Source of the DNA: Candidatus Shapirobacteria bacterium
GTDB lineage: Bacteria > Patescibacteriota > Microgenomatia > UBA12405
Assembly: GCA_903825325.1 (NCBI GenBank)
Contig: CAIKAI010000044.1
Coordinates: 1-46,064 of the forward strand
Direction of reading: 5' to 3'
Length of the DNA stretch: 46,064 nucleotides
In this document: positions 12,001-32,845 of the stretch, piece after piece
How positions within the stretch are numbered: position 1 is the stretch's first letter
Layout: each line of letters opens with the position of its first letter
The notes under the pieces: model-generated
What the model was told of the DNA's origin: nothing
Seen by the model: only the letters and a program-made list of their open reading frames with translations
Database searches by the model: none
Position numbers and translations under genes: made by a program

Positions 12001-15000
12001 TTTTCCGGTTTTGGCGGTTTTATTGTACAAATGGATTGTTTGGTCGACCACTAAATTACTCCCTACCGTTAGCCCTCTCCGCGTAAACGGTTTACCCTTG
12101 GCCAGTACTTCCTTGACCAAGCCATCCAAAATCGTCAAATTATTATTTTCGAGTAAATCTTTTTTGCTCGCCAGCTCTGCTTGGGATTGAATTAATTGTT
12201 TCAAATTTGTTACTTCGGCTGATGGCACATATTTCTTTTCCGCGTCAGTGGCATACCCCGTCATCAAATTCGCTAATTTTTCTAAATCAGATTGGACTGA
12301 TTGGTAGTTGGGCGAACCCACATATCTATATTTGACCATTTTCAAGATTGTGTCCAAAGCGTCTTTGATACTTTTAACTTTTTGCCTCTGGTCATAACTA
12401 CTATTTTGATCATTTAATTTGTCCAATAAATTATTCACTTCATCAGCATATCTTTTTATTTTTCCATAGTCAGCCAAGCCATTTCCATTATTACTGTTGT
12501 ACTGCATATTACTCACATCATTACCCAGTTTTCCCAATTGATGTGTGTCCAATAGGCTATAGACATTATTAAGGGCAATATATTTAATTCGGCTTAAGGG
12601 CTCATTCATGTCGTAGGAAATTTGCCGTAGGGTATCTTTTAAATTCTGGTTGATTTTATCTAGTTGCACCACCAACAGTTTTACATTGCCCACTACAGCG
12701 TCTTGGACCTTAGTGCCTTTCACCAACTCCAAATCATTTGCCAACTTCCTTAAAATTGCAAGTAACTCATCGATTTTCGATTGTAATTGGCTAATTTTGT
12801 CGGCATCCTTTAATCCGTTCATTTGATCCAAAGATGTTTTACTCATTTGCACCAATTCATTGGCTCTTTCGACTGTCCCCTTGTAACTTTTGAAATTAAT
12901 ATAAATATCCTCCAACTCTGTCAGAGCTTTAACTTTTCTTTCCAACAAGGTTATTTCCCCAACCAAAATGGTTTTTTGTTTTTTGAGATATTGCACATCA
13001 TCGTTTTGATTTTGCGAATTGTCTCGACCGTCTTTAAGAATATTTCCCAAAGCCAGACCTAAGACATTATCGCTTTTATCAGTCACCATATTTTTCAAGG
13101 CCAACCGTCGACCTACCAAAATTTCTCGGATTTTTTGTTTATCTACTTGATTGGTAATCCCCGAAGAATTCAAAATTGTATCAATGTCATCCACTGACAA
13201 ACTATTCAATAAGCTCGCCGCTTGATTTTTAATTTCTTCGATTGTCAAATCTCCAAATAACGCCGCTGACAACGGATTAATATCTTTTGATCGCATTGTT
13301 TTTAATTCGGGAATCGAGTCGGTTGTCAAATCAGTCGCCGTTTTTCGGCCAGTTAATCCCTTAAACAGCAACGATCCACCATGGTCGGTCAGCATTACTT
13401 GACCATTTTTATCAGTTTGCAAATTACCGTATGGGTGTTCTGGACCAGTTCCCACCGCATCCCAATCGAGCAAATATGCTGCCGCTGCAAAATATGGTTT
13501 AGCTTGAGTTCGGTCTACGGCTAGGGTTTGTTTTAGCCCTTCCTCAAAATCAGTCAAGTAATAGACATTATTTCCGTCAGTTAATAATGACCCATTCAGA
13601 GTGGGGATTCCCAGTTTCTTATAAATTTGATTACTAACAAATTCCACTTGCGACTGGACCGGATCCTGATACTGTTTGACATAATATTTCTTGCCAGTAT
13701 ATTTATCCTGATAAGTCCCTCCCTGATTCGTTCCCAATTTTTCTCCAATTTTTTCCAGTCGATCAAAGGTTAACGGGCCATTGGCCAGATCATCAAACTT
13801 CTGTTTTGCTATTGGGTAAATACCCTCCACCAATTTCTTCTTTTCTGCCGCCGAATAACTACCGGTAATAAATTTATTTAATTGCGCTTCCAAGCCAGTT
13901 TGAATGATATTCCATCGTACCTTGGTCAAATCGGTTTGCTCCATCGCATTTTTTACTAGCACATATGTACTCATCCATTCACCAGCTCTGTTCTCACCTA
14001 AAGTGTTAATCACCAACATCGCCAATTCCGAATTACGTCCTCCGTCCTGGTCCGCCTGCACGATTAAATCTGTTCTCAATTTATCTACGTCCTGTTGTTG
14101 GGCCACCACCGTATCTTTTTGCTTAGCGCTGGCAAACTCCATTGGTAGATAGGTAAATTCATCTACCACTCCCGATAATTTGATTGTCTTGGAAATCACC
14201 GAGCTTTCAATTTCATTAAATTGCATTCGTCCTCGCGCCAACTCCGAGATTAACTTATTCAAACTTAAAATTTGCGTCAAATTTGTCGTTATCGGAATCT
14301 GACTATCAACACTTTTCTCCAAATTATTTACACTAATTCGTAAATTTTCCAAATCAGTCCAAGCCTGAGCGTCTCCCGTTCTTAAATGATCCGCCGTTGT
14401 GGCAATTTGTGCACTTAATTTCTTTCCCGTCTCCCCCATTTCTGTCGGATAGTTTTGATTAATATTCTCCACAAATACACCCAAAGTTTCCACCTTGGCC
14501 AATGCTTCACTCATAATTGTCTGTTTACCTTCACTGATCCTTTTTTGGATATCATCAATTCTTGCGAGTATGTTGGTTAGTCCAGTCTTTAAATCATTAG
14601 CCCCATCCACTTCCTCAACCAAACTTATCTGTTGATTAATTCTCTTTTTCCAATTCTCCAAATCGGTCGACAATGCTTCCAAATCGCTAAATGCTTGCTG
14701 TTTGTTTGCCAAACTAGTACTTCTTAAATTGTTCTTTATCTTATTGACCTTTGATTCTATTTCCCCCAAAGACACTGCATTATTAGCTTCTTTTCGCAAT
14801 TCATTGAGAGCATTTTGGGCTCTTATTTTGTCTACTTCTTTCTGAAGCCTGGCTTTATTTTCCGCTTTTGCTTCGGCTAGTGTAAATGCTTGTAACTTCA
14901 ACCTTATTTCTACTGCTGTTGTTAATCCAGCCAAATCAGTCTCCTTCATTCCTGCCTCTAAAGCTGCTTTCTTGGCTGCATCAAATTGCTCTTTAACCGC

Positions 15001-18000
15001 AGCAATATCTTTCTCAATGGTAGCTATCATTGCTTTATTTTTGTCAATTTGCTCCTGTCCAAGATTTAAATCCTCTGCTTGTTTTAGTAAATCCTTGGCT
15101 CGTTGCAATAAGTCCTCCAAATTTGTTTTCTTATTCTTCTCCAAATCAATTATTACTGCTAAACCATTGCTAGCCTCTGTCTTTTGTTTTGCTTCATTCG
15201 CTTGTTTATCGATCAAAACCTGATCCAGAGTCAATTGATTTGGATTAGCCGCCACCGCTACCTCGGCCGCTTTTAATCCAGCCTCAGTTTCCTTATTTGC
15301 TGCATCCATTTCTTGCTTAATTCTGGCTTTAATTGTCGCCACTACTTTATCAATATCCGCTTGGTTCGTGGCACTTTCTAATGCCTGATTCTCAAATAAA
15401 TCTAATTGAGGGTATTTAGAACGAACAGATTGTTTGGCTATACTTAACTGCTGTTGCGTCTCGAATTTTTTTGTTTTCTCCATTAAATTCTTAATATTTT
15501 CTGGCAACTCTCTACCGTCATACAAAACTTTATTATAGAAATTGACTAACTCTTCGAAACTTGTACTCTGAGGCAGATAATCAAATGTCTTCGATCCAAC
15601 TTCTTTTTTGAACGCTGCTATTAATTGGAGTTTTGCCCTTATTTCTACAAATGCATCAATAGATAGAGATTCCTTCAATTTACCCTTATCATTCATGGTA
15701 ATTTTTACAAAATCAGAATAATCGAAATACAAATCAGTCGGTTGATGATAATATCCAAAAATACCCGTCTCTTGATATAACTTTTCAAATTGATCAACCG
15801 CTTCCTTTGCTGTCAGTGGTAAATTGTCACTATAACCATTTAGGATTTTTTCCAATCGTCGATTTCGACTTGAAATATCTATTTTTTTGTTAGTATCTAT
15901 CACTACGATATCAGTGACTTTATTAGTTAAGAGATCGACGGTATGATCATCGAGCTTCATTCCTGAATTTATATACAACTCCGTAATTTTAGCTTTTACA
16001 TCGTTACGGTTTGAATTTTCATTAAAGTTCATTTCCAGAACGCTTTTTAGAATGTCACCAAAACCTTTTGTTGCCACTATCCAGTCTCCTTTATTATTCA
16101 ATCCCAGTGATCTGGCCGCCTCACCCAAAAGTGCCTCGCTGTTAGCATCTAAGGTCAAAGCATTCTTTATACTTAGCTTACTTGTCTCTATTTCATTAAG
16201 TAAAGCGTTATAGTCGTTTTTACCCATTACCCGACCCAATACATTTGGCCATAAAGTTAGTGGCTGTCGATCGAACATCGCCACGGCCGCCTTTACTCCA
16301 TATTTCATTTGCGCAACTCTGAATTCCTCAATTGCTCTAGTCACTAACTGTTTATAATAATCCCGTCTTTTTTCCAGCACCGCCTTCATATAAGGGCTAT
16401 TTATCCTCTCAATTGCCTCAGAGTAATAATCATACAAACCACCATCTGCTTTTTTCTCAAGCAAATAAGCTATTAATAATTCATCACTTATGTCATATCC
16501 CGTCGACAAATATGCAATCAACTCATTTTTTACGCGTGGGTAGATATAGTTTTCTTCCAACATCGTCACCCAAGAATAACTAGTCACATCCCCACTTGAA
16601 CCAAGTTTTATCTGACCATCCGTCCCAATTAAATTATTTAATTCAGTTATATTAAACCAATCCAACAAACTATTTAGTGAATGCCGATGTTCATGATCCG
16701 CTGCGCTTGGTGTGTAAGTTTTTTGTCTAAATCCCACTATGCTAATTCGTTGACCCTCAAATTTGATCGTACTATTAAAACCTCCGGAATAGTCAATTGC
16801 ATTTTGTAATTGCTTACTAATATTGTTCAGATTGGTCACTCGTCCAAAAGTACGCATTGTAATAAAGTCAGTATCATTATCAACTATAAAATCAAAACCC
16901 AATAAAGCGACTTTCACAACGACATTCCCTTGCGGTTTAACAAGATACATATCTTCAAACAGTTTGTTACCATCGATGGTCATTTCTCCGTTTTGATCTT
17001 TTGTTTGATATTGTTCTTGTAGCTCAGCTACCTTAGCCCGAGTTAATTGATAATATTTGAACATCGACAGAAGGTCTTTCCAATAGTTGTCCGGCAAACC
17101 CAACACTTGTGAATTATTTACAAATATTTCCCGTAATTTATTTTCTGAAATATCCGGAGTTGCTTCAATTTGCGCTACAATTTCTGCTTCCAGGGAGTTC
17201 AAAGCCGCTTCATGCAGGGCGTAATTCTGTCGATAATCAGCCATTAACTTCAAATTGGTCGCCAAATCTCTTTTGCTTGAACTGCTTCTAATAGCTGCTA
17301 ATTCCTTTACCGGATCAAAAAACCTCCGGATTAGCTTGCCATTTACCAACTCCACTTCTGTCTTAACCCCATTCTCATCAACTAAATATAAGGTCCTCGT
17401 TTCATTTAAGTTGAATTCCAATTCTTTCCCTGTTAGTTGTTTACCCGTAGCTTTGTCTACAATTGATCCTGTCTCAGCCGGTAATAACACCACACGACTC
17501 CCAAATATTTGAGTCTTTGCCAGTGTTACTCCAAATACTTCCAATGAATACTCCACCCCAACCCCTTCATCTGTCAATGTCAAAGTCGGACTTACATAGA
17601 AAACACCATGATCATCTGCATACGATATTAACATCGATGTCCCTACCACAAATTCCTTGGCAGAACTCATCACCCAAGCCCGATTGGCTTCGTCCCAAAC
17701 ATCAATTGTTAACTTGTCAGACATCATCTTACTATTTACCAACTGATATTTTCCATCAGTGTTCTTGACAAACTTAAGCGTATCCGACCCGTAGTTTCCA
17801 AAACTCAACTTCATCCATTTAAATCTTTTTTCCTGTTGCATTTTGGCTATCAAAGCCACATATTGTTTAACTAGCATATCTCTGACAACTTTCGGAATAG
17901 GCTCTACACTATCACGGGTCAATGATTCAATATATTTATCAATCGCCGGACCAATATACGATGTACCGTCGTCTACATCGGCATAAGGTAGAATCTCCAT

Positions 18001-21000
18001 CAATTTTGCCTCTGACACCACCGAATTTGGCGACTGTCGATCAGTTAAGTAAATTAATTTGTAAGCCCAATCATTCAGTTCGTCCACTTGCCACTGTTCA
18101 GTAATGGTGCTCGGGTCAATATTTATTCCCACTGCCGCATATTTAGCCATCACTTGTTTATTATCCAAAGCCAGACCCAATTTTAATTGAGTTGGACTAT
18201 TTTTTGCATCCGCTGCCACCGCCACCTCAGCTGCTTTTAATCCATCATCAACTTCTTTTTTCGCTGCTGCTTTTTCTCTGGCAATTCTGGCTTCTATTGT
18301 GGCCGCTACTTTATTAATTTCATTTTGATTCTTAGCATTTTCTAAAGCTTGATTCTCAAATAAATCGAGTTGAGGGTATGTAACCCGAACCGTTTGTTTG
18401 GCATTATCAAGTTGTTGTTGTTTTGCTTCCGCTGCAATCCGGCCATCAATTATCTTTATTACATCATTAATTTCCTTCTGATTATTAGCTTCAGATAATT
18501 GTTGACTTTCAGTGTCGGTCAATTTCACCTTTTTATCACCATATTTCTTCAACACGTTGTCTTTGGCATCCTTAAGTTGTTTAGCCTCAGCTTCTTGTTT
18601 TGCTTCTGTGGCTAATTTTTCGACTGCGGTTTTTTCATTATTCAGGATTTTAAATATCTGTTGACCGTTTCTAAAAAATATCAAATACCCATCAGTAGTC
18701 AAAGTATATTTACCGTACATCAACCCAGCGCCTAAGCCACGATTTTCATAGGTTACTTCAACTGTTGGCAACGAAACTTCATCACCACGGCCTACGTTTT
18801 TAATCGATACGATCACACCATTTGTGTTTCTCTTTATTGCTAAATCAACATTTCTTTCCATTTCTGGGAAATATATTTGTTGAACTTCAACAGATCCTCT
18901 CTGATCAATTATTCCCAGCTTATTCCACCTATCCAATCTAAACTGTTTAATTGGGGCTAAATTATCCAACAAAAATGTTATATCAACGTAACTCGAGTTA
19001 AAAGGCATAAATAAATTACCAGCCACATTTGCTATTTGATTCGAATATTCAATCGGTTTGTTTGTCAAAACTCCACTATTTATAACCTCACCGTAAACAC
19101 CAAAACTGGTAACTTTTGCATCGGCAAAATATATTCTGTCAACCCAAACTCTTCCCATATTGTCATATCCCATTACCCACCGCACCGGCCTACCTTGCCA
19201 CACAGTTTCATATATTTCCAAGGTTACCAAACCTAATAATGTGTGATTTGTTGTTTCAGTCTTTACTGGCCCTTTACTAAAATCTGGTACAAAGCCATCC
19301 GGATACTTTATCGCTGACAACTTATTTCCATCAACTGGCACTTTATTGTAAGTCCCGGGCATGTATTGTTGAACATCTGCCAACGCTCCACCGTCATCAT
19401 ACATTTTTACTTCTCTGTCCCACTCAGAAAGTGTGAAATTCACTACATCATCATTTTTTAGTTTGAAATAATTTAGGATATCCTTATTAACTTCGATCAT
19501 TTGTTCACTTTCTTTACCTGATAGATAGTCGATGATGTCTTGAGTGGGTTTAGTTGTCTGAGTATAATGTGCTCCTTTTTCAAAAGCGCCACTAGGAGTC
19601 ATCCAAGGCGACAACCTCCAACCACCAGAACTGTTACTTTTCCAAAATAATCTTGGTTGTAACTTGCCATTAACTTCAATAAAAGCTACCGACAATAACC
19701 TGACTTTTTCAAATTCGTTGGTCGTTTCGCTTGTCATCTTCAATACATTTGGGAACATAAAATACGTATCCCTACCCACTGTCAAAACCTGAGTCGGGAT
19801 CAAATTTGGATCAGATAACATATTCCGAACAGTTGCTGTTTGCTTGGTATCAGTTCTAGCATTTTTGAAAAATTCACTTTCCGCTTCAGTTAAATTTCGA
19901 AGGTTTATTTTTGTAGCTGACTCATCAGCTCGGTTTTGTGTTGCTGCTACATCCGCAACTTTTTTCCGCGCCACCAATTGATTCACTCCGGCAATTGTTT
20001 TAGTTTTATCCAACTGTGTCTGATCTACGCCCAACGCTAGGGCATCTTTTTTGGCTTGTTCAAAATCAGCCGCTAATTTTTCTGCCGCAGCTTTCTTATC
20101 AGCCAAACTTTGATTATAGACAACAACTAAATTATCAATTTTGCTGACATCCACACCAAGATTTCTTCCTAAATCTGCCATTTTCTGGGCATTTGCCAAG
20201 TTACCTTTGTTGACAATCGTTATTCTGTTTACATAATCCGTAACAGTTTTAATATCCGTTTCTTTTTGAATTTCCGCGGCGGTTTTTTGCAGTGCTTTTG
20301 GCACTGATCCATTTAATTCCGCCAATTCAATATCATTTTGCAATTGGGCCACCACTGCTTCAATGCCTCTATACCCAACCCCCAAATTTTTAGCTCTGTC
20401 CAAAATGCCCTTTGCCTCAACCAGCAAAGCTTTTTTATCTGCACCACTTGCTTTTAATTTAACCGTCATCGCCGCCCAATCACTTTCGACTTTATTTTTA
20501 GCTTGCATTACCAATAAACCATTTGTCAACTCTTTTAGGGTCGTCATTTCCTTATTTTTGAAATCATCAGTTGCCAATACCGACAAATCTGATCCGGTTA
20601 AATTGCTTGACCCGGCAAAATCAATGGCTATTAGTCTTTTACTACCATCTGCCATGGTTTGTACCCTAATATTTGACGGATGCAATTGGTTGGTCAATTT
20701 ATAATTAGAATTTGTTGATGCTTCCTTAGATGTGTTAAATAAATCACCATGTGCCGTACCCGTTATATCATGTACTTTTTGCATTTCCTCGATAAAGTCA
20801 TCAACCATTTTCTGGGTTAAATCACCACCTTCAGCTAAGTAGTTGCTTAACGCCACCGTATCTTCAAAATATTCTTGTTGGAATCCGCCCAAAACTAAAC
20901 CTTTAAAGGTTATAAATGGTGCCTTGCCCCCCCATTTTTGATAAAACTCCAGTTGGAATTTGTTATCTTCGTACACTCCTCCGGCAATATACTCATCCAA

Positions 21001-24000
21001 AATCTGCCCTTTAGGCAAAATTGGTTTTATAAAGATTTTTGTCAAAGTCTTGGTTATTTTATTTACAAAAGTATTGGCATACGATCCCGACGATCCTTTT
21101 TCCCCGTACAATGGTGTCGCCACATAATCCGGTATGTTCAAGGGCCAGCCCAACGGCACCATCTTGGCGACCTCATTGGCTTTCTGCAAATATAAATCTT
21201 TATCCGTTTGGCTCGCTGCTCGAATAATCTTGTTTAAATAGCGATTATAAACTTGGGCCACAATGTCATAAAAATATTGTGGCTCAGCTGTTTTAGTAAA
21301 TAAGCCATCTTTTTCCCATTGCTCTAAGGTGTCTAATTGCGAGTTAAATAGTTCGTCCGAATCCTTCGTTGTATTAGTCACGTATTTCTTCGCCCCTAAT
21401 TTTACGGCCCTAGCCGCCACGTCCGCCGCACTTACTACCACCGGCGGTGGGTTATTAACTCGACTTGCGTTTGGCACTGTCGCCGTTGAATTATTTGTTG
21501 TCGTTCGACTTGCGTTTGGCACTGTCGCCGTTGAATTATTTGTTGTCGTTCGACTTGCATTTGGCACTGTCGACAATCCCGCTTGGTAGTCGATTAACTT
21601 TTTATTTAAATTATCAATAATAGTTTGATCAACTCCGTATCCTTTAGCATCATTTATTAACTGCTTAACTACCTCCACATTGCTCGCGTCTACCGTCGTT
21701 ATTGTGGTTATTTTTGACATTGCCGCAATCCTCGCTCTCAACTCCGGAGTTGTCCCCGTTACCACAAATCCCGCTCCAAACATTTTTCTCCCCTCTCGAG
21801 CCAATGCTACTCGGGCAGTTATCTGAGCATTGGTTCCCGTCACCATAAAGTCTGCCCCAAATTCAGTTTGAGTATCTTTAATCAGTTGATCCCTGGCATT
21901 TAATGGTTGAACTCTGCTGCTATTTGGTATTGTCGCGGTCGAGTTAAATGCATCAATTTTCTTTTGCAAATCAGCAACCACATTCGGCTCAACGTGATTA
22001 TCCGTCGCCTTTTTCAACAACGCCGTCGCTTTAGTCATCGCTGCCGCTTCTGAAATTGGGTCCAACACTGCGATATCGTAAGTAGTTTTTAATTGAGTAT
22101 CAGTAATTCCCGACAAATTTACGTTTTGATACGCCGATCTAATTACCGTCATTAATTCCAATCGTTTGGAGGCTATCGCTGCCGTAAAATTATCCCAATC
22201 AGCATTTGTTTGAATACTTGGCAAAACATCCGTTCCAAACAAAGTTTTATAATTCTCCTCATTAACCATTCTGACGCTCGAAGTTTTCGCCGGCACTCGA
22301 TCGTTGGTTGGATTATTAGCCTCCCCCATTCCTACATTTCCCGCTCCACCATTATCAAATGCATCAATTCTATTTTGTAAATCATTTTTGATACTTTGAT
22401 CTATTTGATAGCCATTAGCACTGGTTAACAGCTTTTTTGCCTGAGTCACATTGGCCGAGGTTATCGGTCCCAGTGCTGCGATATCCGCCACATTTTTTAG
22501 TTGGACTGTTGTTAAATTAGCCGCATTAACATTTGGGTATACCGCTTTTATTTGAACTGCCAATTCGTCACGTTTAGCACTAATATCCGCCACCATTTGA
22601 TTCCATGTTCCATTGTTCATTGCCACCGGCTTGGGTACCACAATTCCCAAAGCCCGGGCATTTGATTCTGTTACCATCCTCGCTCCACTATTTACTTTTG
22701 GTACCAAATCGGTCGCAGTGTCAACCGCAACCGACGATGCTGCCGCGCTCCCCGAATTGTTAGTTGAAGTTGAGTTCGAACTTGCCACCGTCGTTGATTC
22801 CCCACCCATACCCCGTCTATTTTCGGTTGGGAAATCTTCAGCTGTGTATCTTGAAGCAATCGCTTTTTCCAACTCCACTAAATTCTTCGCCTCCGCCACC
22901 GAACCTTGAGTTTGATTACTTCCACCATTTTCAAAAGAAATCCCAGTAGTTGGATCAGTCGCCATCAATTTCTGATCGGGACTCCATTTTGTTTGGAAAT
23001 CACCATAAGCTTCCGATTTTCCCAAGCTGTCTAGTTGACCCTTCAAATCAGTGGCTAACTTTTGTAGCTCTGCTTGAGCACTTTCCAAAGTATTTTTTAC
23101 CGCCAAGGCTCCACTACCTGGAGTGTCATTTATCATTTGGTTTCTCAATTGAGATTCCTGAGTGAAAACCGCCAATTTATCGTCATAGTATTTATTAATT
23201 TCTGCCAGCTTCGCTTCTCTAGCCGCCGGATCGATTCCTATTTGTCCCTCAACTGCCTTCACTGCCAAACTTCGAGCATCAGCAATCGCCTCTCTCGACA
23301 TATTCTCAATCGCCTTTATGACTGTTTCTTGTCGAGTTTCAGCGATCGCTTTCGCCTGATTGGCTTCATATAATGCCTTTGCCTGGGCTGTATTAATATT
23401 TGGATCGGCTCCGACAATGAAATGATCCGGTCCATATAATTCTGCATTTCCATATTGGGGATTATCCCGCAAAAAGGTTCTGATATCGGCATCAAAGTTA
23501 TCCACTGAAGGCGGCTTACCCTCGTTGGTCATCACCCTCACAATTTCGCTATATAATCTATCCCGACCAGTACCTTGAATCGCCGTGTCCATGGTGGTAT
23601 TAGTGTCATTAATTTGGACCCATCTGGCATTTTTATCTACTGCCAAATTTAACCCGGTGTCGCGGTGTTGAATTTCCAACACATAATCAGCCGAGCTCTT
23701 AGCCATCCCCTCACCATAATTTGCTGCCACATAGTTTTTGTAGTCGGTGATATTGTTAAAAGTTTTAATCGATCCATCTTTGAATTTAATGGTAAAAGTA
23801 CTCGCATCGGCATCGATAATATGGTGGTCCCTAACTCCCTTATATTGTTCATCAATTGCCTTTGAAACCTGGTCAGTCATTTCTCCAGTCGCCGTATTCA
23901 AAATTCTCACATTCTCGTAAACTAGCTGAGCCCGGTCGAGCTGAATAATTTTGTCCGCCAACACATCCATTTGACTACTTGCCGGCTCTCCATTTCCATT

Positions 24001-27000
24001 AGCTCTAGCCTCCGCTCGTCCTCGAGCTGCTTGCATCTCTGCATCAAACGCTCTGCCATCCATCCCATTTTTTAAAGCAAAAACTTCATCCATCACTTCG
24101 GTAGTTAGTCTCTGGTATTCATCCCGACTAATAACATCTTTCGGAATCAAACGCGCCACCGCCTCTAAAGCATTTGCCACTCCGGTTACGCTTCGAGGTT
24201 CAATTAAAGGTGGGGCATTACCAATCTGCACTGCATTTTTCATATCCCCATAACCTTTTGTTATCAGGTCTGGAGTTGCATCCAAAATAATTACTTGACC
24301 TTCAGACTTCGATAAAAATAATTGCAAACCATTTGTTTGATTTGACTGGTCATAAAATTTGACACTCGCCAAATCTAGTACCGGGGCCTCTTTTCCTGCC
24401 CCCATGGCCGCATTGTACATCGCTTTCCCCGTTTCCTCCGCCGCTAAAATCTCCAATATTGATGACTTGGTTTGACCAGTTGTCGACCCTTTGTTTAATA
24501 TATGGCTCGAACCATCTGCCGCATAACCGTAATCAACCGTCGGCACTTCCGCCAATTGACCCAGCTCCGTATTTACCACATTTAATCTGGTTACCAAATC
24601 GCCACCGCCCAAGCGGTCTAGTATATCGGGGCGTAATAATATTTCTCTAAAATCAACATCACTTAAGTTTCTTAACGTTTCTTTTAGTGGTGAATTGCTA
24701 CTCTCGACCGTTTCCCGATATATCCTGGTAATGGTTGCTTCGTCCATTGGCAGCTTTGTTTTTGGATCGAACACATCAACAAAACTACTCTTACCATCTT
24801 TCAAATTTTGCATCACCTTATTCCGTAAATCCGTTATTGCCTTTTGTTGCAAAACCTCGCCTCTCAATGCCTGAATCTCGTCATATGTCATTCTTAAAGT
24901 GGTATCTGCCGCCGTCATTGTCAACAAATATTTAGCTTCGCCAATGTTTGTCCGATAATTCTTCCCCGCCTGGATATATTTGCTACCTTCATCGGCAATT
25001 ACCGTGGCCTTATCAAATATGTCTGCCAACAATTTTCCGTTATCCCCCCCGGCTTGAATTCCAAAATGCAGATCCGAGTCGGAAATCATTACTGACACTT
25101 TTCCTTTTTGTAACAGCACCTTAAATTCTTCCGTCGTCATTTCAACTGGAGTCACCTTGCCGTCAATCAACACTAATTTTCTCCAACCAATATCTTTATC
25201 AAAAAACACCCTGTCTATCCCCGCATCGGCATACATTGTATGAAAAGACTCATCAACCGCCCCATTTCGGAAGTTAACGTCAGCAAATATTTGCATCACC
25301 GGCTTACCCACATCGGCGTACAACAAAGTCATCGCTTGGCTGGCCACCAAACTTTTTCCGTAGCCGGTTTGTGCCGACAATACTACCACCGGATTATTGC
25401 TCGACGCCACCCCCACAAAATCGGCCAATTGTAGTTCTGTAAAAGCAAAGTTTGATCCCTTATAAGTCTTACCAAACGTTTCTACCCTGGCCACCACCCG
25501 ATTTAATTCATCAATCGCAGTTTTATAATCAGCCAATTGCTTCGGGTCAGTTACCACTTTTTCATTTACTCTCAATTGATTACTCCCCGGCTCTCTCACA
25601 AAAAGACTGCCACTTTCCGCCATCCCCACCAATGGTTTACCTGTGTCCTTAGCCGCTTTAGTCGCCTCCGCCAAAATCGCTTTTGAAGTATCCGACACGA
25701 CCACATTCGCCTCCGAAAATTTTGGCAACAAATTTGTGGTTGTATTCGATGAAAATAGGCTCTGAATTGCCTCACCAATTCTCCCCAATATGCCTTTCGG
25801 TGCCGCTGCTTCTGCCTCAGCTAAGTTTTTCAAAGCTAAATCATTTGCTGCTTTGGCCTCGTTCACCACATGCTTGGCTGCGTCTACTTCGCTCCCGGTA
25901 GCGTTTTTCAAGGCAGTTTCTGCTTTGGCCAAATCAGCGGCAGTTTTTGCCGCATAAGAATTAGCCGCATCAGCAATTTTTTGGGCTTGTTTTGCGGCTT
26001 CACCCGGGTTAAAAATATTGATGATGGCATCAACAATTTTTAGATTTTTTGGTAATGCTGCATTTGCCTCTGCCAGCGATTTATTAGCCGCATCATAAGA
26101 CATCTTGGCATCATTCACAGCTTTATTCGCCGCCGCCAGATCTTTTACCTCAATCGTTTCTCCGGCGGCTTGTCTGTCTTGTAATTCTGTCAAATTTTTC
26201 ATCGCCTCATTTAGGGTGGTCCGAGCATCATTCGCCTCAGCTGTGGCCACTGCAATTACTCTTTGAACCATGCTTCCCGACGAACTGGCTGGGACCACTA
26301 CATTGGCAATTCCTTCTGCAATTCGGCTCAGTAATCCTGGTGGTGTGGCTAATGCTTTGGCCGCGGCTAAGGTTTTATTAGCTTGAGCCACTAAGTCTTT
26401 CGCCAATGAAACCTCGCTCTCGGCATTAAATAGTTCGACCTTGGTCGACACCTTCAGGGTTCCGTTAGCTTTGTCAGTCTCAATCCTAGCATTGACCTCT
26501 GCTAGCTTTTCCTCAGCCTGCTTTAAATTAGATTCTGCACTGGCTTTGGCTGCTTCAGCCGAAACTACCACCTTGGTCGCCCGCGAGGTCACCGATTTAT
26601 CCGGATTAAATATATTTGACACTGCCTCCCCTAACCGTGCCGGCAAACTTTTTGCCAACAACGTTTCTGCCTGTTTTACCCCAATTTGTGCCTTCTCATT
26701 TGCTGTCATAGCTTTGTCCACTGCCTCCAAAGCCGACTTGATCTCCGCTGGTTTAACCGTTTCGCCGTTTTTCTGTTTGACGAGCAGATCATCTAAAGTC
26801 TTTTGGCTACTATCCAAGTTCGTTTTTGCTTCTTCCGCCTTTGCCTTGTTTAAATCGACAATTTTCTGCGCTTCCACCGCTACCGGATCCTTGGGTACAA
26901 TATTGGCGATATTCTTCCCTACCTGAGCCACAAATGCTTCAGCCACCTGTTGTACTGCATTTTTTGTCACCGGGACTACTGGTGCTTTTGCTGTTTCCGC

Positions 27001-30000
27001 CGCTGGTTTAGCACTCTTGGCTTTGGCTAATTCGGCGTCCAAAGCCGCCTTCGCCTCCACTTGTTTTTGATTAGCCAAATCTAGCTTGGCCTGAGCATCC
27101 ACTAATCCTTGGCTAACCGATTCCGGTACCTCGCCTTGAATTCTACTTGCTACTTCCGCCGAGGCCTTATATCTGTCTAAATTTTCCTGAGCCTGGACCA
27201 ATTCCGTTTTAGCCGTCTCCACCGCCGCTTGTTTTTGGTTCAAACTGGCTTCCGCCGTTGCCTTAGCACCTTCCACTGCCAAACTCGGAGCAATTTTCCC
27301 TAACTCGGCATTGGCCGCCGCCATTGCTCTTTGGTTAGTTTCTGCCAACTTCTGAGCGCCATTATATTCTGTCTGAGCCGCAGTCAAGATTTTTTTATCG
27401 GGATTTAATTTATTTGTCGCGCTTTCAAGCTTTAACTGCGATTCTACTAACTTCGTTAATCCAGCCTGATAATCAGCCGCCGCCTTGGCTGCCTGATTGG
27501 CCGCCTCCAAAGCTGTGTTAACTTCGGGCAACTTTGCTTTATCGGCCGGATCAGTCGAACTAGCTAATTTATCCGATAATGCCTGTAAATCAGTTTGCAA
27601 CTTAACCGCCTTCTCTAAAGCCGTTTTGGCTTGACTAGTGGTTGTTTCCACCAATTTTGTATTTAGGTCGGCCACCTTTTGATTCGCCGCTTCAGCCTTA
27701 GCTTTCGCTTGCTCTAGTGCTACACTGTCTTGCTTACTTTCGGCCAATTTGACCTCTAACGCCGCTTTTTCTGCTGCCGCTGCCGCCCCAGCCCTTTGCG
27801 ATGCTTGATATCCAGGGTCAGCAGTTAGCCTGTCCAATTGGCTTTGAGCGGCTTTTAATCCCTCTTCAGCTGACCTGACCGCCACCGAAGCTTCCAATAC
27901 CGCCTTTGGATCTCCCTGCAATTTCAAGCTGTCCAATTTACTTTGAGCCTCATCATAAGCCTTTTTCGATTGATTAACCGCGGCCGTAGCTTCAACCACC
28001 GGCGAAAGATTACTTAACTTTTGCGATGCTGCTGTATGCGCCTCCATTGCCTTACTCAAAGATTCCTGAGCTGCAGTTAATTTTGCCTGCTGTTCGGCAG
28101 TTACAGTTGATCCTTCTGTTACGAATTTGCTTACTTCACCAAACCTTTGGGCTGCAATATTTAAGTTTGCTGATGCACTTTCCAGCGATAATATCGCTGA
28201 AGTTTCTGTAATCGCCGCTTTAGCTTCGGCCACACTTTTAACCACTTCCCCGTTCGCCGCCAACCCAGTTAATCCCATGACACACATTGATTGCGAATCA
28301 ACATCCTGACTTAAGCCTTTCGAAATCGCTCCCGAGCAAGCGCTAATCACAAATAAATCCGCACCCGCCGCACTAACGATTGCTGATCCTGCCGAGCCAA
28401 CTTTAGCCGCAGTGTCTAATACCGCCATCGCCCCCGCCATGTCCGTTCCAGTATGACTCGCCAACGAATCAATTACTGCCGTCGCCCCCTTCGCCGCCAA
28501 TCCTCCCACCATTCCCCCGAGATGAAGCATTTGACCTGCCGCCATTGCCCCCGTCGAAGCACATTCTAGCTGAGAAGCATTTGGATTTGAACAGGTATCC
28601 ACTGCCATTTTTCCAAAAATTATTGACCCATTTATTGAATTAGCCACCTGAATCCCGGTTGCTACTGCCCTCGCACCATTAGCTAATGTTGCCGCCAACT
28701 CAGCACCCTGTGAGGCATACGCCACTAAATCTCCGGTTTCACTCACTATTTCTCCCGCTTTTGCAATCGTACTCAAGACTCCAGCTGCTTGACCCAAAGC
28801 GCCAGCCACCGCTCCCGTCCCCATCATAGCTGAAATAACTACCGTAGTGGTACAAGATTCCTGAGTAATTCCGGCCGTACCCACCCGACTACAAGTGTCA
28901 ATCGAGTTACTAATCATTGATGGTAAAAATAGTGCTCCTGAATATGTTAACCATAAAGATGCCACCACCGGAGTTGCCGCTCCGCCCGTACCAATAATTG
29001 CTGCCACCGAACCAACTGCTGCCGCTGCTGTCAACACTGGAGTAGCGATATCCCCTGCCACGCCCGCATAACCTTGAGTTAACAGACTAAGATTATATGA
29101 ATTTACTCCCGACATCGCCATATCACTTTGCGCCGTGGAAATTTTTTCCGACTCCCGATAGAACCGACCATTCGTATAATCATTAAAATTGATCCTCACA
29201 TATGTTCCCAAATCTTGCTTTCGGGTATCAAGCATTTGTCCTTCCTTTTCCCAAGTTGTTTTTCCCGCCGCAATGTCGGCCACCACTTGGTCATATCGAC
29301 CCTCATTAGTTACCGTTCGAATAATCGGCGCCTCAGCCTGAAACTTGGTTTTTTCTGCCATCAAATCAATCGCTTTTACATTCGGATTGCTCGACAATTT
29401 GATGATTGAGGCCATAGCGCTAATTTCAGTACTACAATTTTTTCCACCAAGTTGGGTGCATCTTTCCATTGTTAAAAACTCATCCTCTGAATGAAATACT
29501 GTCGCTTTTGCATTCAATGAGTTAGGTGTCAACGGATTCTTTGAGAAAGCATTCATATTTGTACTAATCGCAAACTGAGTGCATGACGTCAGGTTACTTT
29601 CACCCGCCGAAGATGAATTTTTTTTGCTTAAACAATCTTTGACGTTTTGGTCAAACATGGCTTGATCAATTGCTTTGGTCTGAGCTGATATACCCACCGT
29701 CGCCATATCATGCACGGCAATGTTCGCCTGTCTTTCAATTGACAACTTCGGGATTTCCGTGTTCGGATCAAAACCAGCCGCCACCAGCAAATCTTCTGGC
29801 TTGGCAAAAGAGGCGCATAAACTCGGTTTATCAGCACACACTTTTTCATTAACCAAATCAGTGTTTCCATTTAGATAGTTATTTTGCAACACCGCCTTGA
29901 TATAGTAATCAATTACCGGGACATCTTTGTACAATGGCAAATATTTTTGCACCAATACTGCATCGGATAAACTTGAACATTTATCCGCTCCCATATCCTT

Positions 30001-32181: not shown

Positions 32182-32188
32182 TAAGTTT

Positions 32189-32845
32189 TTACTGTATTTC
32201 AAAAACAACTGTTAACTTTTTTTCTACTTTAACGGTCTCAAAATTGGTATAAAATCCGGGTTTTTCGTTTACCGAACCTCCCAAAATTCCGTTATCATCG
32301 GAAATTGAAATTAAATTACCCACATTTTTACCAGTAACTTTAGCCAGCACTTCAGCTTTAACCCTAGCGTCTTTAATTGCTTCAGTGCGAACTTTCTCCT
32401 CAACATTAGCTGCATCTTTTGGAATAAAAGTTACTGCGCTAATTGAATTGGCCCCGTTAGTAAAAAGCAATCTAATCAGATCACTCGTTTTCGACACTGA
32501 TTTCGACTTAATGTTCATCGCACTCACCATAATAAATTTACCGTCACTTTGCGGCGATACTTGGTAGAAGCTCTTATTAATTTCGGCATCTTTTCCCATG
32601 GTGTTTAGGGTCAAATCCGTCAACCGTAACAAATTAGCTTCGCCACTCGCAATTGCATCACCTGCCGACGCTCCCGAACCTGCGGCCGTCACCACTAACG
32701 ACACTGAATCAACCGGCACCACCATTGATCCGTCACCCGTTACACCTACAGTTGTTTTTATCCTCCCCAACCACAGGTAACCTCCGACTAATAACAATGC
32801 CACCAACACCCCGGTTATCCAGGGCTTATTTTTAATAAAGTCCAT
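32189..32845 (-). CDS. SIMPL-domain (DUF541-like) envelope protein with N-terminal TM/signal
   Basis: 218-aa track ORF with hydrophobic N-terminus WITGVLVALLLVGGYLWL. SIMPL-like pattern: VGVTGDGSMVVPVDSVSLVV, then ISAVTFIPKDAANVEEKVRTEAIKDARVKAEVLAKVTGKNVGNLISISD. Its stop is 8 nt upstream of the giant-gene GTG. Confidence 0.65.
   Translation of the reverse strand: MDFIKNKPWITGVLVALLLVGGYLWLGRIKTTVGVTGDGSMVVPVDSVSLVVTAAGSGASAGDAIASGEANLLRLTDLTLNTMGKDAEINKSFYQVSPQSDGKFIMVSAMNIKSKSVSKTSDLIRLLFTNGANSISAVTFIPKDAANVEEKVRTEAIKDARVKAEVLAKVTGKNVGNLISISDDNGILGGSVNEKPGFYTNFETVKVEKKLTVVFEIQ

Follow-up and report, generated by a model that had tools for sequence, protein, structure and literature searches.

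What is a third kinase-like domain doing in the middle of a giant protein that already carries two Hanks-type kinases? The question is raised by a contig (CAIKAI010000044.1, assembly GCA_903825325.1) of a Candidatus Shapirobacteria bacterium, a member of the candidate phyla radiation (CPR), which was analyzed over positions 1 to 46,064 (hereafter, the window). A reading made from the sequence only had placed an atypical kinase domain of the PI3/PI4-kinase-like type at positions 13050 to 13760, within the very long open reading frame (ORF) that fills most of this stretch. We followed up this proposal by homologue searches, conservation analysis, structure prediction, and a survey of the proteins in which related domains occur. 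A kinase-fold domain is indeed present, and it is followed by a second domain whose C-terminal part resembles, at moderate confidence, the DarT-like ADP-ribosyltransferase (ART) fold. Taken together, the two domains are probably a phage-type cassette of host-modifying enzymes within a giant multi-effector protein, the kinase carrying out ATP-dependent phosphotransfer to a protein in another cell.

The kinase-fold domain and its conserved positions

ORF residues 6141 to 6379 are a real, bounded domain, and the match to homologous proteins is far beyond chance. When a 351-residue query was searched with HMMER against 1.84 billion representative proteins, 2,729 homologues were found at E ≤ 1e-3 and 1,060 at E ≤ 1e-10, both counts being clusters at 50% identity. 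The matches always span query residues ~40 to 270, and the best single homologue was found at E 1.5e-64. The boundaries given by a profile of 163 homologous segments (13072 to 13788, 240 bits) are essentially those proposed from the sequence only, and the four peptides on which that proposal was based (GGTYQDKYTGKKYYVK, VEFVSNQIYKKLGI, YLLDWDAVGTGPEHPYGN, and MLTDHGGSLLF) all lie in one uninterrupted minus-strand frame of the translated ORF. The same profile detected no second copy of the domain in the 10,736 residues of the ORF, and a search of the rest of the genome gave no further match. Pfam and NCBIfam, searched with a 500-residue stretch, gave chance-level matches only, and PHROGs gave none for the kinase-fold domain. 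Likewise, our literature search found no paper on this family or on its NWD motif, and no experimental study. The closest stand-alone homologue (P0003) sits on an ordinary contig of a metagenome-assembled genome, where the context is uninformative. A single-sequence search of the PDB also returned designed "Pizza" beta-propellers at E ~1e-5; this was rejected as an artefact in which six repeats of ~5 bits, each with E >100, had been summed.

Conservation was measured over the 163 homologous segments, and columns conserved in at least 93% of them were treated as family-invariant. These columns are G6159, G6163, G6164, Y6176, K6178, E6189, D6250, G6253, N6262, D6275, G6277, G6278, and E6301, and the query retains all of them. 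Five of these residues (K6178, E6189, D6250, N6262, and D6275) are the candidate catalytic positions, conserved in 96 to 99% of the segments. An uncurated family consensus reads G[ST]NxGG ... YVK ... E ... LANWDxxG..DN ... IDxGG ... PE, which the query matches over the full ~240 residues, differing from it at the less conserved columns N6248D, R6273L, R6283K, and G6286T.

The equivalence of these residues to known kinase motifs rests on the register of the predicted secondary structure. The glycine-rich loop falls between predicted strands beta1 (model residues 17 to 21) and beta2 (28 to 34), the loop holding D6250 and N6262 comes after helix alphaE, N6262 abuts the start of predicted strand beta7, and D6275 lies two residues past predicted strand beta8. 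The same positions are familiar from PKA, where N171 stands directly before beta7 and the IQVTD segment places the DFG-type Asp two residues after beta8. The Gly loop, Lys, alphaC Glu, D...N, and DxG elements named in the sequence-only reading are therefore well placed, falling on columns conserved in 93 to 99% of the 163 segments and in the expected secondary-structure register. In addition, the PE dipeptide with E6301 is possibly the equivalent of the APE motif, judging from its spacing. The catalytic loop is longer than usual: the Asp-to-Asn spacing is 12 residues in the query and 8 in most relatives, versus 5 in canonical kinases, and the subgroup of the query has a four-residue insert (HPYG) ahead of N6262. 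Judged from the conserved residues and the model, the domain appears to be catalytically complete.

Fold and relationship to known kinases

An AlphaFold2 (AF2) model of the domain, built from a 57-sequence alignment (pLDDT 91.4, pTM 0.89), has the predicted order beta1-beta2-beta3-alphaC-beta4-beta5-alphaE-beta7-beta8-helices, which is the bilobal fold of the protein-kinase-like clan of Pfam (CL0016, PKL). Comparison of the model with the PDB by Foldseek found the protein-kinase-like fold that had been expected, with 595 chains matched at E ≤ 1e-3; among the best 50 of these 595, all but a few are kinases. The seven best are chains of Helicobacter pylori CtkA (E 1.7e-6 to 2.4e-5, TMq 0.53 to 0.59), the top match having an E-value of 1.7e-6, a TMq of 0.58, and a TMt of 0.55. 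They are followed by PKA, MEK1, p38, ALK2, SIK3, and similar kinases, and two small-molecule kinases of the APH type, N-acetylhexosamine kinase and YtaA, are also among the best 50 of 595. In the BFVD collection, the model matched family members within large phage proteins (TMq 0.65 to 0.76), among them proteins of Gordonia phages Sixama and GodonK, an HK97-portal fusion, and an "ADP ribosyltransferase," and after these generic viral kinases. Profiles made from 14 and from 57 sequences gave no significant match to PDB sequences (SetA 0.09, CtkA 0.49, MSK1 0.97). Structure comparison therefore reveals the kinase relationship, whereas searching sequences with a hidden Markov model does not.

The domain is thus a third one of kinase fold in this protein and of a class other than the two Hanks kinases, as had been proposed; its assignment to the PI3/PI4-kinase type has to be dropped. 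The query, searched at E ≤ 10, had no match to the PI3/PI4-kinase family PF00454, nor did 14 relatives at E ≤ 1 or any of the full-length homologues that were scanned, and the best 50 of the 595 PDB matches include no PI3K or PI4K chain. Two phage proteins labelled PI3K/PI4K were matched weakly in BFVD (TMq 0.40 to 0.43). The likeness to PF00454 is at the level of the superfamily, that is, a protein-kinase-like fold and a shared logic of Lys, Asp...Asn, and DxG. In contrast to PI3K and PI4K, the loop of the query (LLDWDAVGTGPEHPYGN) and that of the family (LANWDVVGxxxDN) are without the DRHxxN motif, no Arg-His following the Asp, and the domain is much smaller (~240 residues). HipA was reportedly once grouped with the PI3/PI4-kinases, and it is only in this loose historical sense that the earlier label holds.

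HipA is also where the scattered sequence-level similarities of the family lead. Of the 14 relatives with a single domain, 4 gave weak matches to the Pfam model HipA_C (best E 0.004) and 2 to HipA_2; in one relative (P0026), the HipA_C score was 23.6 bits, under the Pfam gathering threshold of 30.5 bits. The highest values came from P0010, a protein of 3,416 residues with five copies of the kinase fold, which matched HipA_C at 67.5 bits, APH at 64.7 bits, and HipA_2 at 45.7 bits, all on the N-lobe; these scores are summed over the copies and exceed the whole-protein cut-offs of Pfam, and P0010 alone passes the HipA_C threshold. The query itself matched no HipA model of Pfam. A profile alignment (hhalign) with Escherichia coli HipA covered 35 columns and placed the region from alphaC to beta5 onto HipA residues 198 to 232, with a probability of 0.8% for the single HipA sequence and of 10% (E 0.003) for a shallow HipA alignment; a homologue search meant to deepen it returned only close E. 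coli-type HipA sequences and added little.

The features that the family has in common with HipA and CtkA (PDB 3AKJ, 3AKK, and 3AKL; PF07804 and PF20613) are the compact kinase fold, the Gly-rich loop, the Lys and Glu, the Asp...Asn pair, and the Asp that binds metal. It differs from HipA in several respects: (i) the loop is NWDxxG...DN (DWD...GN in the query) in place of DxHxKN, with 8 to 12 residues between Asp and Asn in place of 5; (ii) PF13657 was not found in any relative scanned; and (iii) the domain has no HipA N-terminal domain and no HipB-type antitoxin and occurs within multi-enzyme proteins, not in a two-gene toxin-antitoxin module. From the Hanks kinases (PF00069), it differs in having DWD, DHGG, and PE where these have HRD, DFG, and APE, and no Pkinase match was obtained here. 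We conclude that the domain belongs to a family of its own within the protein-kinase-like superfamily, with the HipA/CtkA branch as its closest neighbor.

A candidate ADP-ribosyltransferase downstream of the kinase fold

The kinase-fold domain has a regular companion. In 54 of its 150 best homologues, a BLAST comparison found that a further domain, hereafter X, is shared with the giant ORF, where it occupies residues ~6700 to 7105 and begins ~330 residues downstream of the kinase fold. This downstream ART-like domain had gone unremarked in the sequence-only reading. The family motifs of X are FH, SxxERxRRG, GMSS, GGADSVFTR, RTDWYAY, and NEQMF; each is present in the query, in the forms FH, SxSERxxRG, GLSS, GGADNVFTR, RVDMYAY, and NEQMF, with RVD replacing RTD. 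Searches of Pfam and of PDB chains gave no sequence-level match for X. Its AF2 model is of moderate confidence (pLDDT 70.9, pTM 0.74), and the best Foldseek match of this model is DarT1 (8BAQ, E 1.6e-4, TMt 0.58), followed by Thermosipho DarTG, the DarT proteins of Thermus and Mycobacterium tuberculosis, and yeast Tpt1, with classical ART toxins matched weakly. Over the DarT structures (8BAQ, 7OMU, 7OMV, and 7YK3), the fold matches range from E 1.6e-4 to 3e-2 and from TMt 0.43 to 0.58.

We therefore read the C-terminal part of X (~200 aligned columns), with moderate confidence, as a putative ART of DarT-like fold. The Glu in NEQMF, the Tyr-rich strand YAY, and the His in FH would resemble the H-Y-E class of ARTs, and the likely catalytic residues would accordingly be H6912, Y6996/6998, and E7034. 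H6912 is invariant in a 13-sequence alignment and not in a 25-sequence one; Y6996/6998 and E7034 are conserved. Unlike DarT, X has an additional N-terminal half that is rich in beta structure (~180 residues), and no macrodomain partner of the DarG type was found, although no search was aimed at one.

A second CPR giant protein

Among 60 related genomes, a single one, G032, gave a match to the kinase-fold domain, and searches of 4 genomes of the same genus gave none. G032, a CPR genome of the same family, has a giant ORF (C11:10000-24541, plus strand) of at least 4,846 residues in the stretch examined and of 8,179 residues in the related-genome search. This ORF matches the kinase domain over ~229 residues at 45% identity, and the flanks within 500 residues on each side are unrelated to those of the query. 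As the match is confined to these ~229 residues, the boundaries of the kinase domain are those of a mobile module. In the G032 protein, the kinase domain (242 bits) is followed by a linker of ~580 residues, by X (270 bits, 36% identity), and by a homologue of the junction domain that comes after X in the query. The linker sequence is unconserved between the two giant proteins; that of the query is of low complexity, heptad-like, rich in K, L, N, and D, and 320 residues long, compared with the ~580 in G032. A shared order with unrelated intervening sequence suggests module shuffling among giant genes, and the sporadic occurrence is more in keeping with an effector cassette that moves horizontally than with a core signaling component.

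The same enzymes in phage proteins

Outside of CPR bacteria, the family is met mostly in phage-type proteins. The domains fused to the kinase fold in homologues include ADPrib_exo_Tox, NUDIX, Phage_Mu_F, Phage_portal_3, DUF2213 (a region that matches PHROG families of head-maturation proteases), and the "Swiss Army Knife" DSP phosphatase, and a single protein may hold two to five kinase-fold copies. P0010, in which five copies are accompanied by several sub-threshold ADPrib_exo_Tox stretches, is an extreme case of an iterated kinase-ART architecture. The domain is carried by 20 cultured-phage records, such as Pseudomonas phages Dolphis (gp117), Jeremy, and Touem01, Yersinia phage fHe-Yen8-01, Aeromonas phage ST4, and several Gordonia phages; in these, the genes are annotated only as "ADP-ribosyltransferase" or "hypothetical," and the kinase-fold domain is unannotated. 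Those phages that are ~90 kb in size infect Pseudomonas, Yersinia, Aeromonas, Escherichia, and other hosts, and their genes with the domain encode ~1,200 residues. In Dolphis (84125-87793, gp117), a "nucleotide phosphatase" gene is located two genes downstream.

Domain X points in the same direction. It was found in 49 IMG/VR viral loci (48 ORFs), mostly at the C-terminus of proteins of ~1,100 residues. A MuF domain was present in 5 of the 7 X-bearing proteins scanned, and 2 of these 5 also had a Rho_N/SAP-like domain. Most X-bearing ORFs show a weak match to the kinase profile between MuF and X (E 1e-4 to 1e-2), and one shows a strong match (1.7e-48). The order of kinase and then ART thus appears to be common to phage MuF proteins, most of which match the kinase only weakly at the sequence level.

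Polyvalent proteins and MuF toxins provide the setting for such fusions (Iyer et al. 2017, PMC5512222; Jamet et al. 2017, PMC5576092). Phage proteins fused to head components (MuF, portal, or prohead protease) are read in the literature as being packaged and ejected into the host. A HipA-family kinase has also been described between the portal and capsid genes of the gut-phage group "Gratiaviridae" (Benler et al. 2021, PMC8008677). The kinase clade reported by Iyer et al. (PMC5512222) has lost the C-terminal subdomain, has an insert between a conserved His and Asp, and occurs mainly in Verrucomicrobia and Bacteroidetes; it has no obvious match to the present family, which has no conserved His. 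Compared with phage polyvalent and MuF proteins, the CPR protein has the same order from kinase to ART, and the family shares with them the fusions to Phage_Mu_F, Phage_portal_3, DUF2213, and ADPrib_exo_Tox. The difference is that the cassette here occupies a central position in a protein of >10,700 residues that is encoded on the chromosome of a CPR bacterium and is without any head-protein domain. That phage polyvalent proteins combine a kinase-fold effector with ARTs is a known theme; what is added here is the presence of the pair as a cassette within CPR giant proteins, with the order conserved in two of them.

The giant ORF and its locus

The positions of the cassette and of the other features are collected in Table 1. 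The length of the giant ORF is a lower bound, as more than 10,736 codons run up to the window edge without a stop. The two Hanks kinases noted from the sequence are real (Pfam Pkinase, 97 bits over two stretches) and C-terminal; the Pkinase matches are confined to them, with none on residues 6141 to 6379. A VanY peptidase domain was also found by Pfam in the same ORF. The adjoining genes encode RuvC, MurB, an ABC transporter pair, and a SIMPL protein, and the locus is therefore chromosomal. The assembly amounts to 1.25 Mb, in keeping with an ultra-small bacterium.

Strongly hydrophobic 19-residue windows occur at only three places in the 10,736 residues, all in the N-terminal region (Table 1). 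The ~9,400 residues downstream of them, and with these all of the enzyme modules, should therefore be on one side of the membrane.

Table 1. Features of the giant ORF, with positions in the window and the evidence for each
Feature	Position	Strand	Evidence or remark
Host ORF	1..32208	-	>10,736 residues; ORF list; runs off the window edge at its 3' end
Hydrophobic segments (ORF 14-32, 1054-1072, 1273-1295)	~32113-32169, 28993-29049, 28324-28392	-	
Kinase-fold domain (ORF 6141-6379)	13072..13788	-	163-homologue profile, 240 bits; AF2 pLDDT 91.4
Gly-rich loop GTNQGG (G6159-G6164)	13717..13734	-	G6159 in 99%, G6163 in 98%, G6164 in 93% of 163
K6178 of YYVK, putative equivalent of the beta3 (VAIK) Lys	13675..13677	-	K in 161/163; in predicted strand 40-45
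E6189 of VEF, putative equivalent of the alphaC Glu	13642..13644	-	E in 160/163; in predicted helix 49-64
Catalytic-loop equivalent LLDWDAVGTGPEHPYGN, with D6250 (presumed base) and N6262 (presumed metal ligand)	13423..13473	-	D6250 in 97%, N6262 in 98%
DHGG (D6275), putative DFG-equivalent metal-binding Asp	13375..13386	-	D in 96%, GG in 97-98%
PE (E6301) of IPELKTMR	13306..13311	-	E in 161/163; 26 residues past the DFG-like Asp
Linker, helical and coiled-coil-like, ~320 residues (ORF 6380-6699)	12112..13071	-	Between the kinase domain and X
Partner domain X (ORF 6700-7105)	10894..12111	-	Co-occurrence with the kinase; AF2; Foldseek

What the cassette may do

If the explanation that we favor, a phage-type cassette acting on another cell, is correct, the chemistry would follow the usual scheme of kinases: with K6178 and E6189 keeping ATP in place, D6250 serving as the base, and N6262 and D6275 binding the metal, the outcome would be ATP-dependent phosphotransfer. 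The phosphate would go to a protein of a different cell, such as a host or rival of this episymbiotic CPR bacterium, and the kinase would be one of several effector modules on the giant protein. A protein is suggested as the substrate because of the analogy to CtkA and HipA and because of the stretch between DHGG and PE, which would be similar to an activation segment. Since a kinase requires ATP, an exposed location would imply translocation into the partner cell, as for phage-ejected polyvalent proteins.

Several points weigh against this explanation: (i) no activity, substrate, or delivery has been demonstrated for any member of the family, as far as the literature was searched. (ii) The catalytic loop is atypical, with NWD...DN in the family and DWD...GN in the query, and a gap between Asp and Asn of 12 residues versus 5; it has neither the His and Lys of the HipA motif DxHxKN nor the HRD and Lys of eukaryotic-type kinases. 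(iii) ATP would be out of reach if the region is in fact extracellular and is not translocated at any stage. (iv) Kinase folds can carry out other chemistry, such as the AMPylation by SelO and the glutamylation by SidJ. (v) A small-molecule or nucleotide substrate would equally account for the similarity to APH and for the frequency of fusions to NUDIX and ART domains.

The last of these points can be developed into an alternative that we consider unlikely, in which an enzyme of kinase fold acts on a small molecule, a nucleotide, or an ADP-ribose-containing substrate and is not a protein kinase. Candidate substrates would be the ADP-ribose mark that the neighboring ART makes, the end of a nucleic acid, or metabolites of NAD or ADP-ribose. 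This would explain why the APH family, which consists of small-molecule kinases, matches the N-lobe of the five-copy P0010 (64.7 bits), why N-acetylhexosamine kinase and YtaA are found among the best 50 fold matches, and why fusion to enzymes of NAD and ADP-ribose (ADPrib_exo_Tox, NUDIX, and the DarT-like X) is systematic; the presence of Tpt1 among the fold matches of X would fit as well. However, fusion within a polyvalent protein needs no common substrate (Iyer et al. 2017, PMC5512222), and both CtkA, the best structural neighbor, and most of the other matches are protein kinases. The conserved 26-residue segment from the DFG-like Asp to PE, which probably resembles an activation segment, also argues for a protein kinase.

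A second alternative, which we regard as quite improbable, is a kinase fold that does not transfer phosphate, being either an enzyme of the AMPylation or glutamylation type or a pseudokinase that regulates or scaffolds the neighboring ART. SelO and, next to ARTs of the SidE family, SidJ are precedents for this. The atypical, lengthened catalytic loop could be taken in the same sense, as could the four departures of the query from the consensus (N6248D, R6273L, R6283K, and G6286T), which fall on well-conserved, non-invariant columns. However, the five catalytic positions are conserved in 96 to 99% of the family and are all present in the query, which is not the pattern of a pseudokinase, and the folds of SelO and SidJ were not among the top PDB matches. 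Finally, it is very unlikely that the domain serves ordinary cytoplasmic signaling within the producing bacterium, as its Hanks kinases would, with an incidental resemblance to phage cassettes: two Hanks-type kinases do occur in the same protein and no module-specific secretion or translocation signal was found, but the domain is restricted to 1 of the 60 related genomes and 0 of the 4 same-genus genomes searched, it travels with the DarT-like ART, and its homologues are overwhelmingly found in phage head-protein fusions and in multi-enzyme proteins with toxin-type domains.

Implications for giant proteins of CPR bacteria

Beyond the cassette itself, we offer a speculation that is itself rather unlikely, namely, that the giant CPR protein is a cellular counterpart of phage polyvalent proteins, anchored at the surface and delivering phage-derived effectors into the bacterium or archaeon on which the CPR cell lives. 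Besides the present kinase and the DarT-like ART, several peptidases and the two Hanks kinases would be among these effectors, all strung along a single polypeptide. The members of the cassette might then act sequentially on one target: phosphorylation of the end of a nucleic acid or of an ADP-ribose mark, for instance, could make the modification irreversible.

Apart from this speculation, the probable reading as a phage-type cassette has consequences for annotation and for the biology of CPR bacteria. The family is large yet without a Pfam, NCBIfam, or PHROG model, so that a frequent enzyme of phages and effector proteins is invisible to routine annotation. The pair of a kinase and a DarT-like domain within a CPR giant protein links the function of such giant proteins with the cargo enzymes that phages inject, and the cassette provides defined catalytic residues for experiment. 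This leads to the testable suggestion that giant CPR proteins may have been assembled from phage modules as weapons with several effectors or as devices for manipulating a host.

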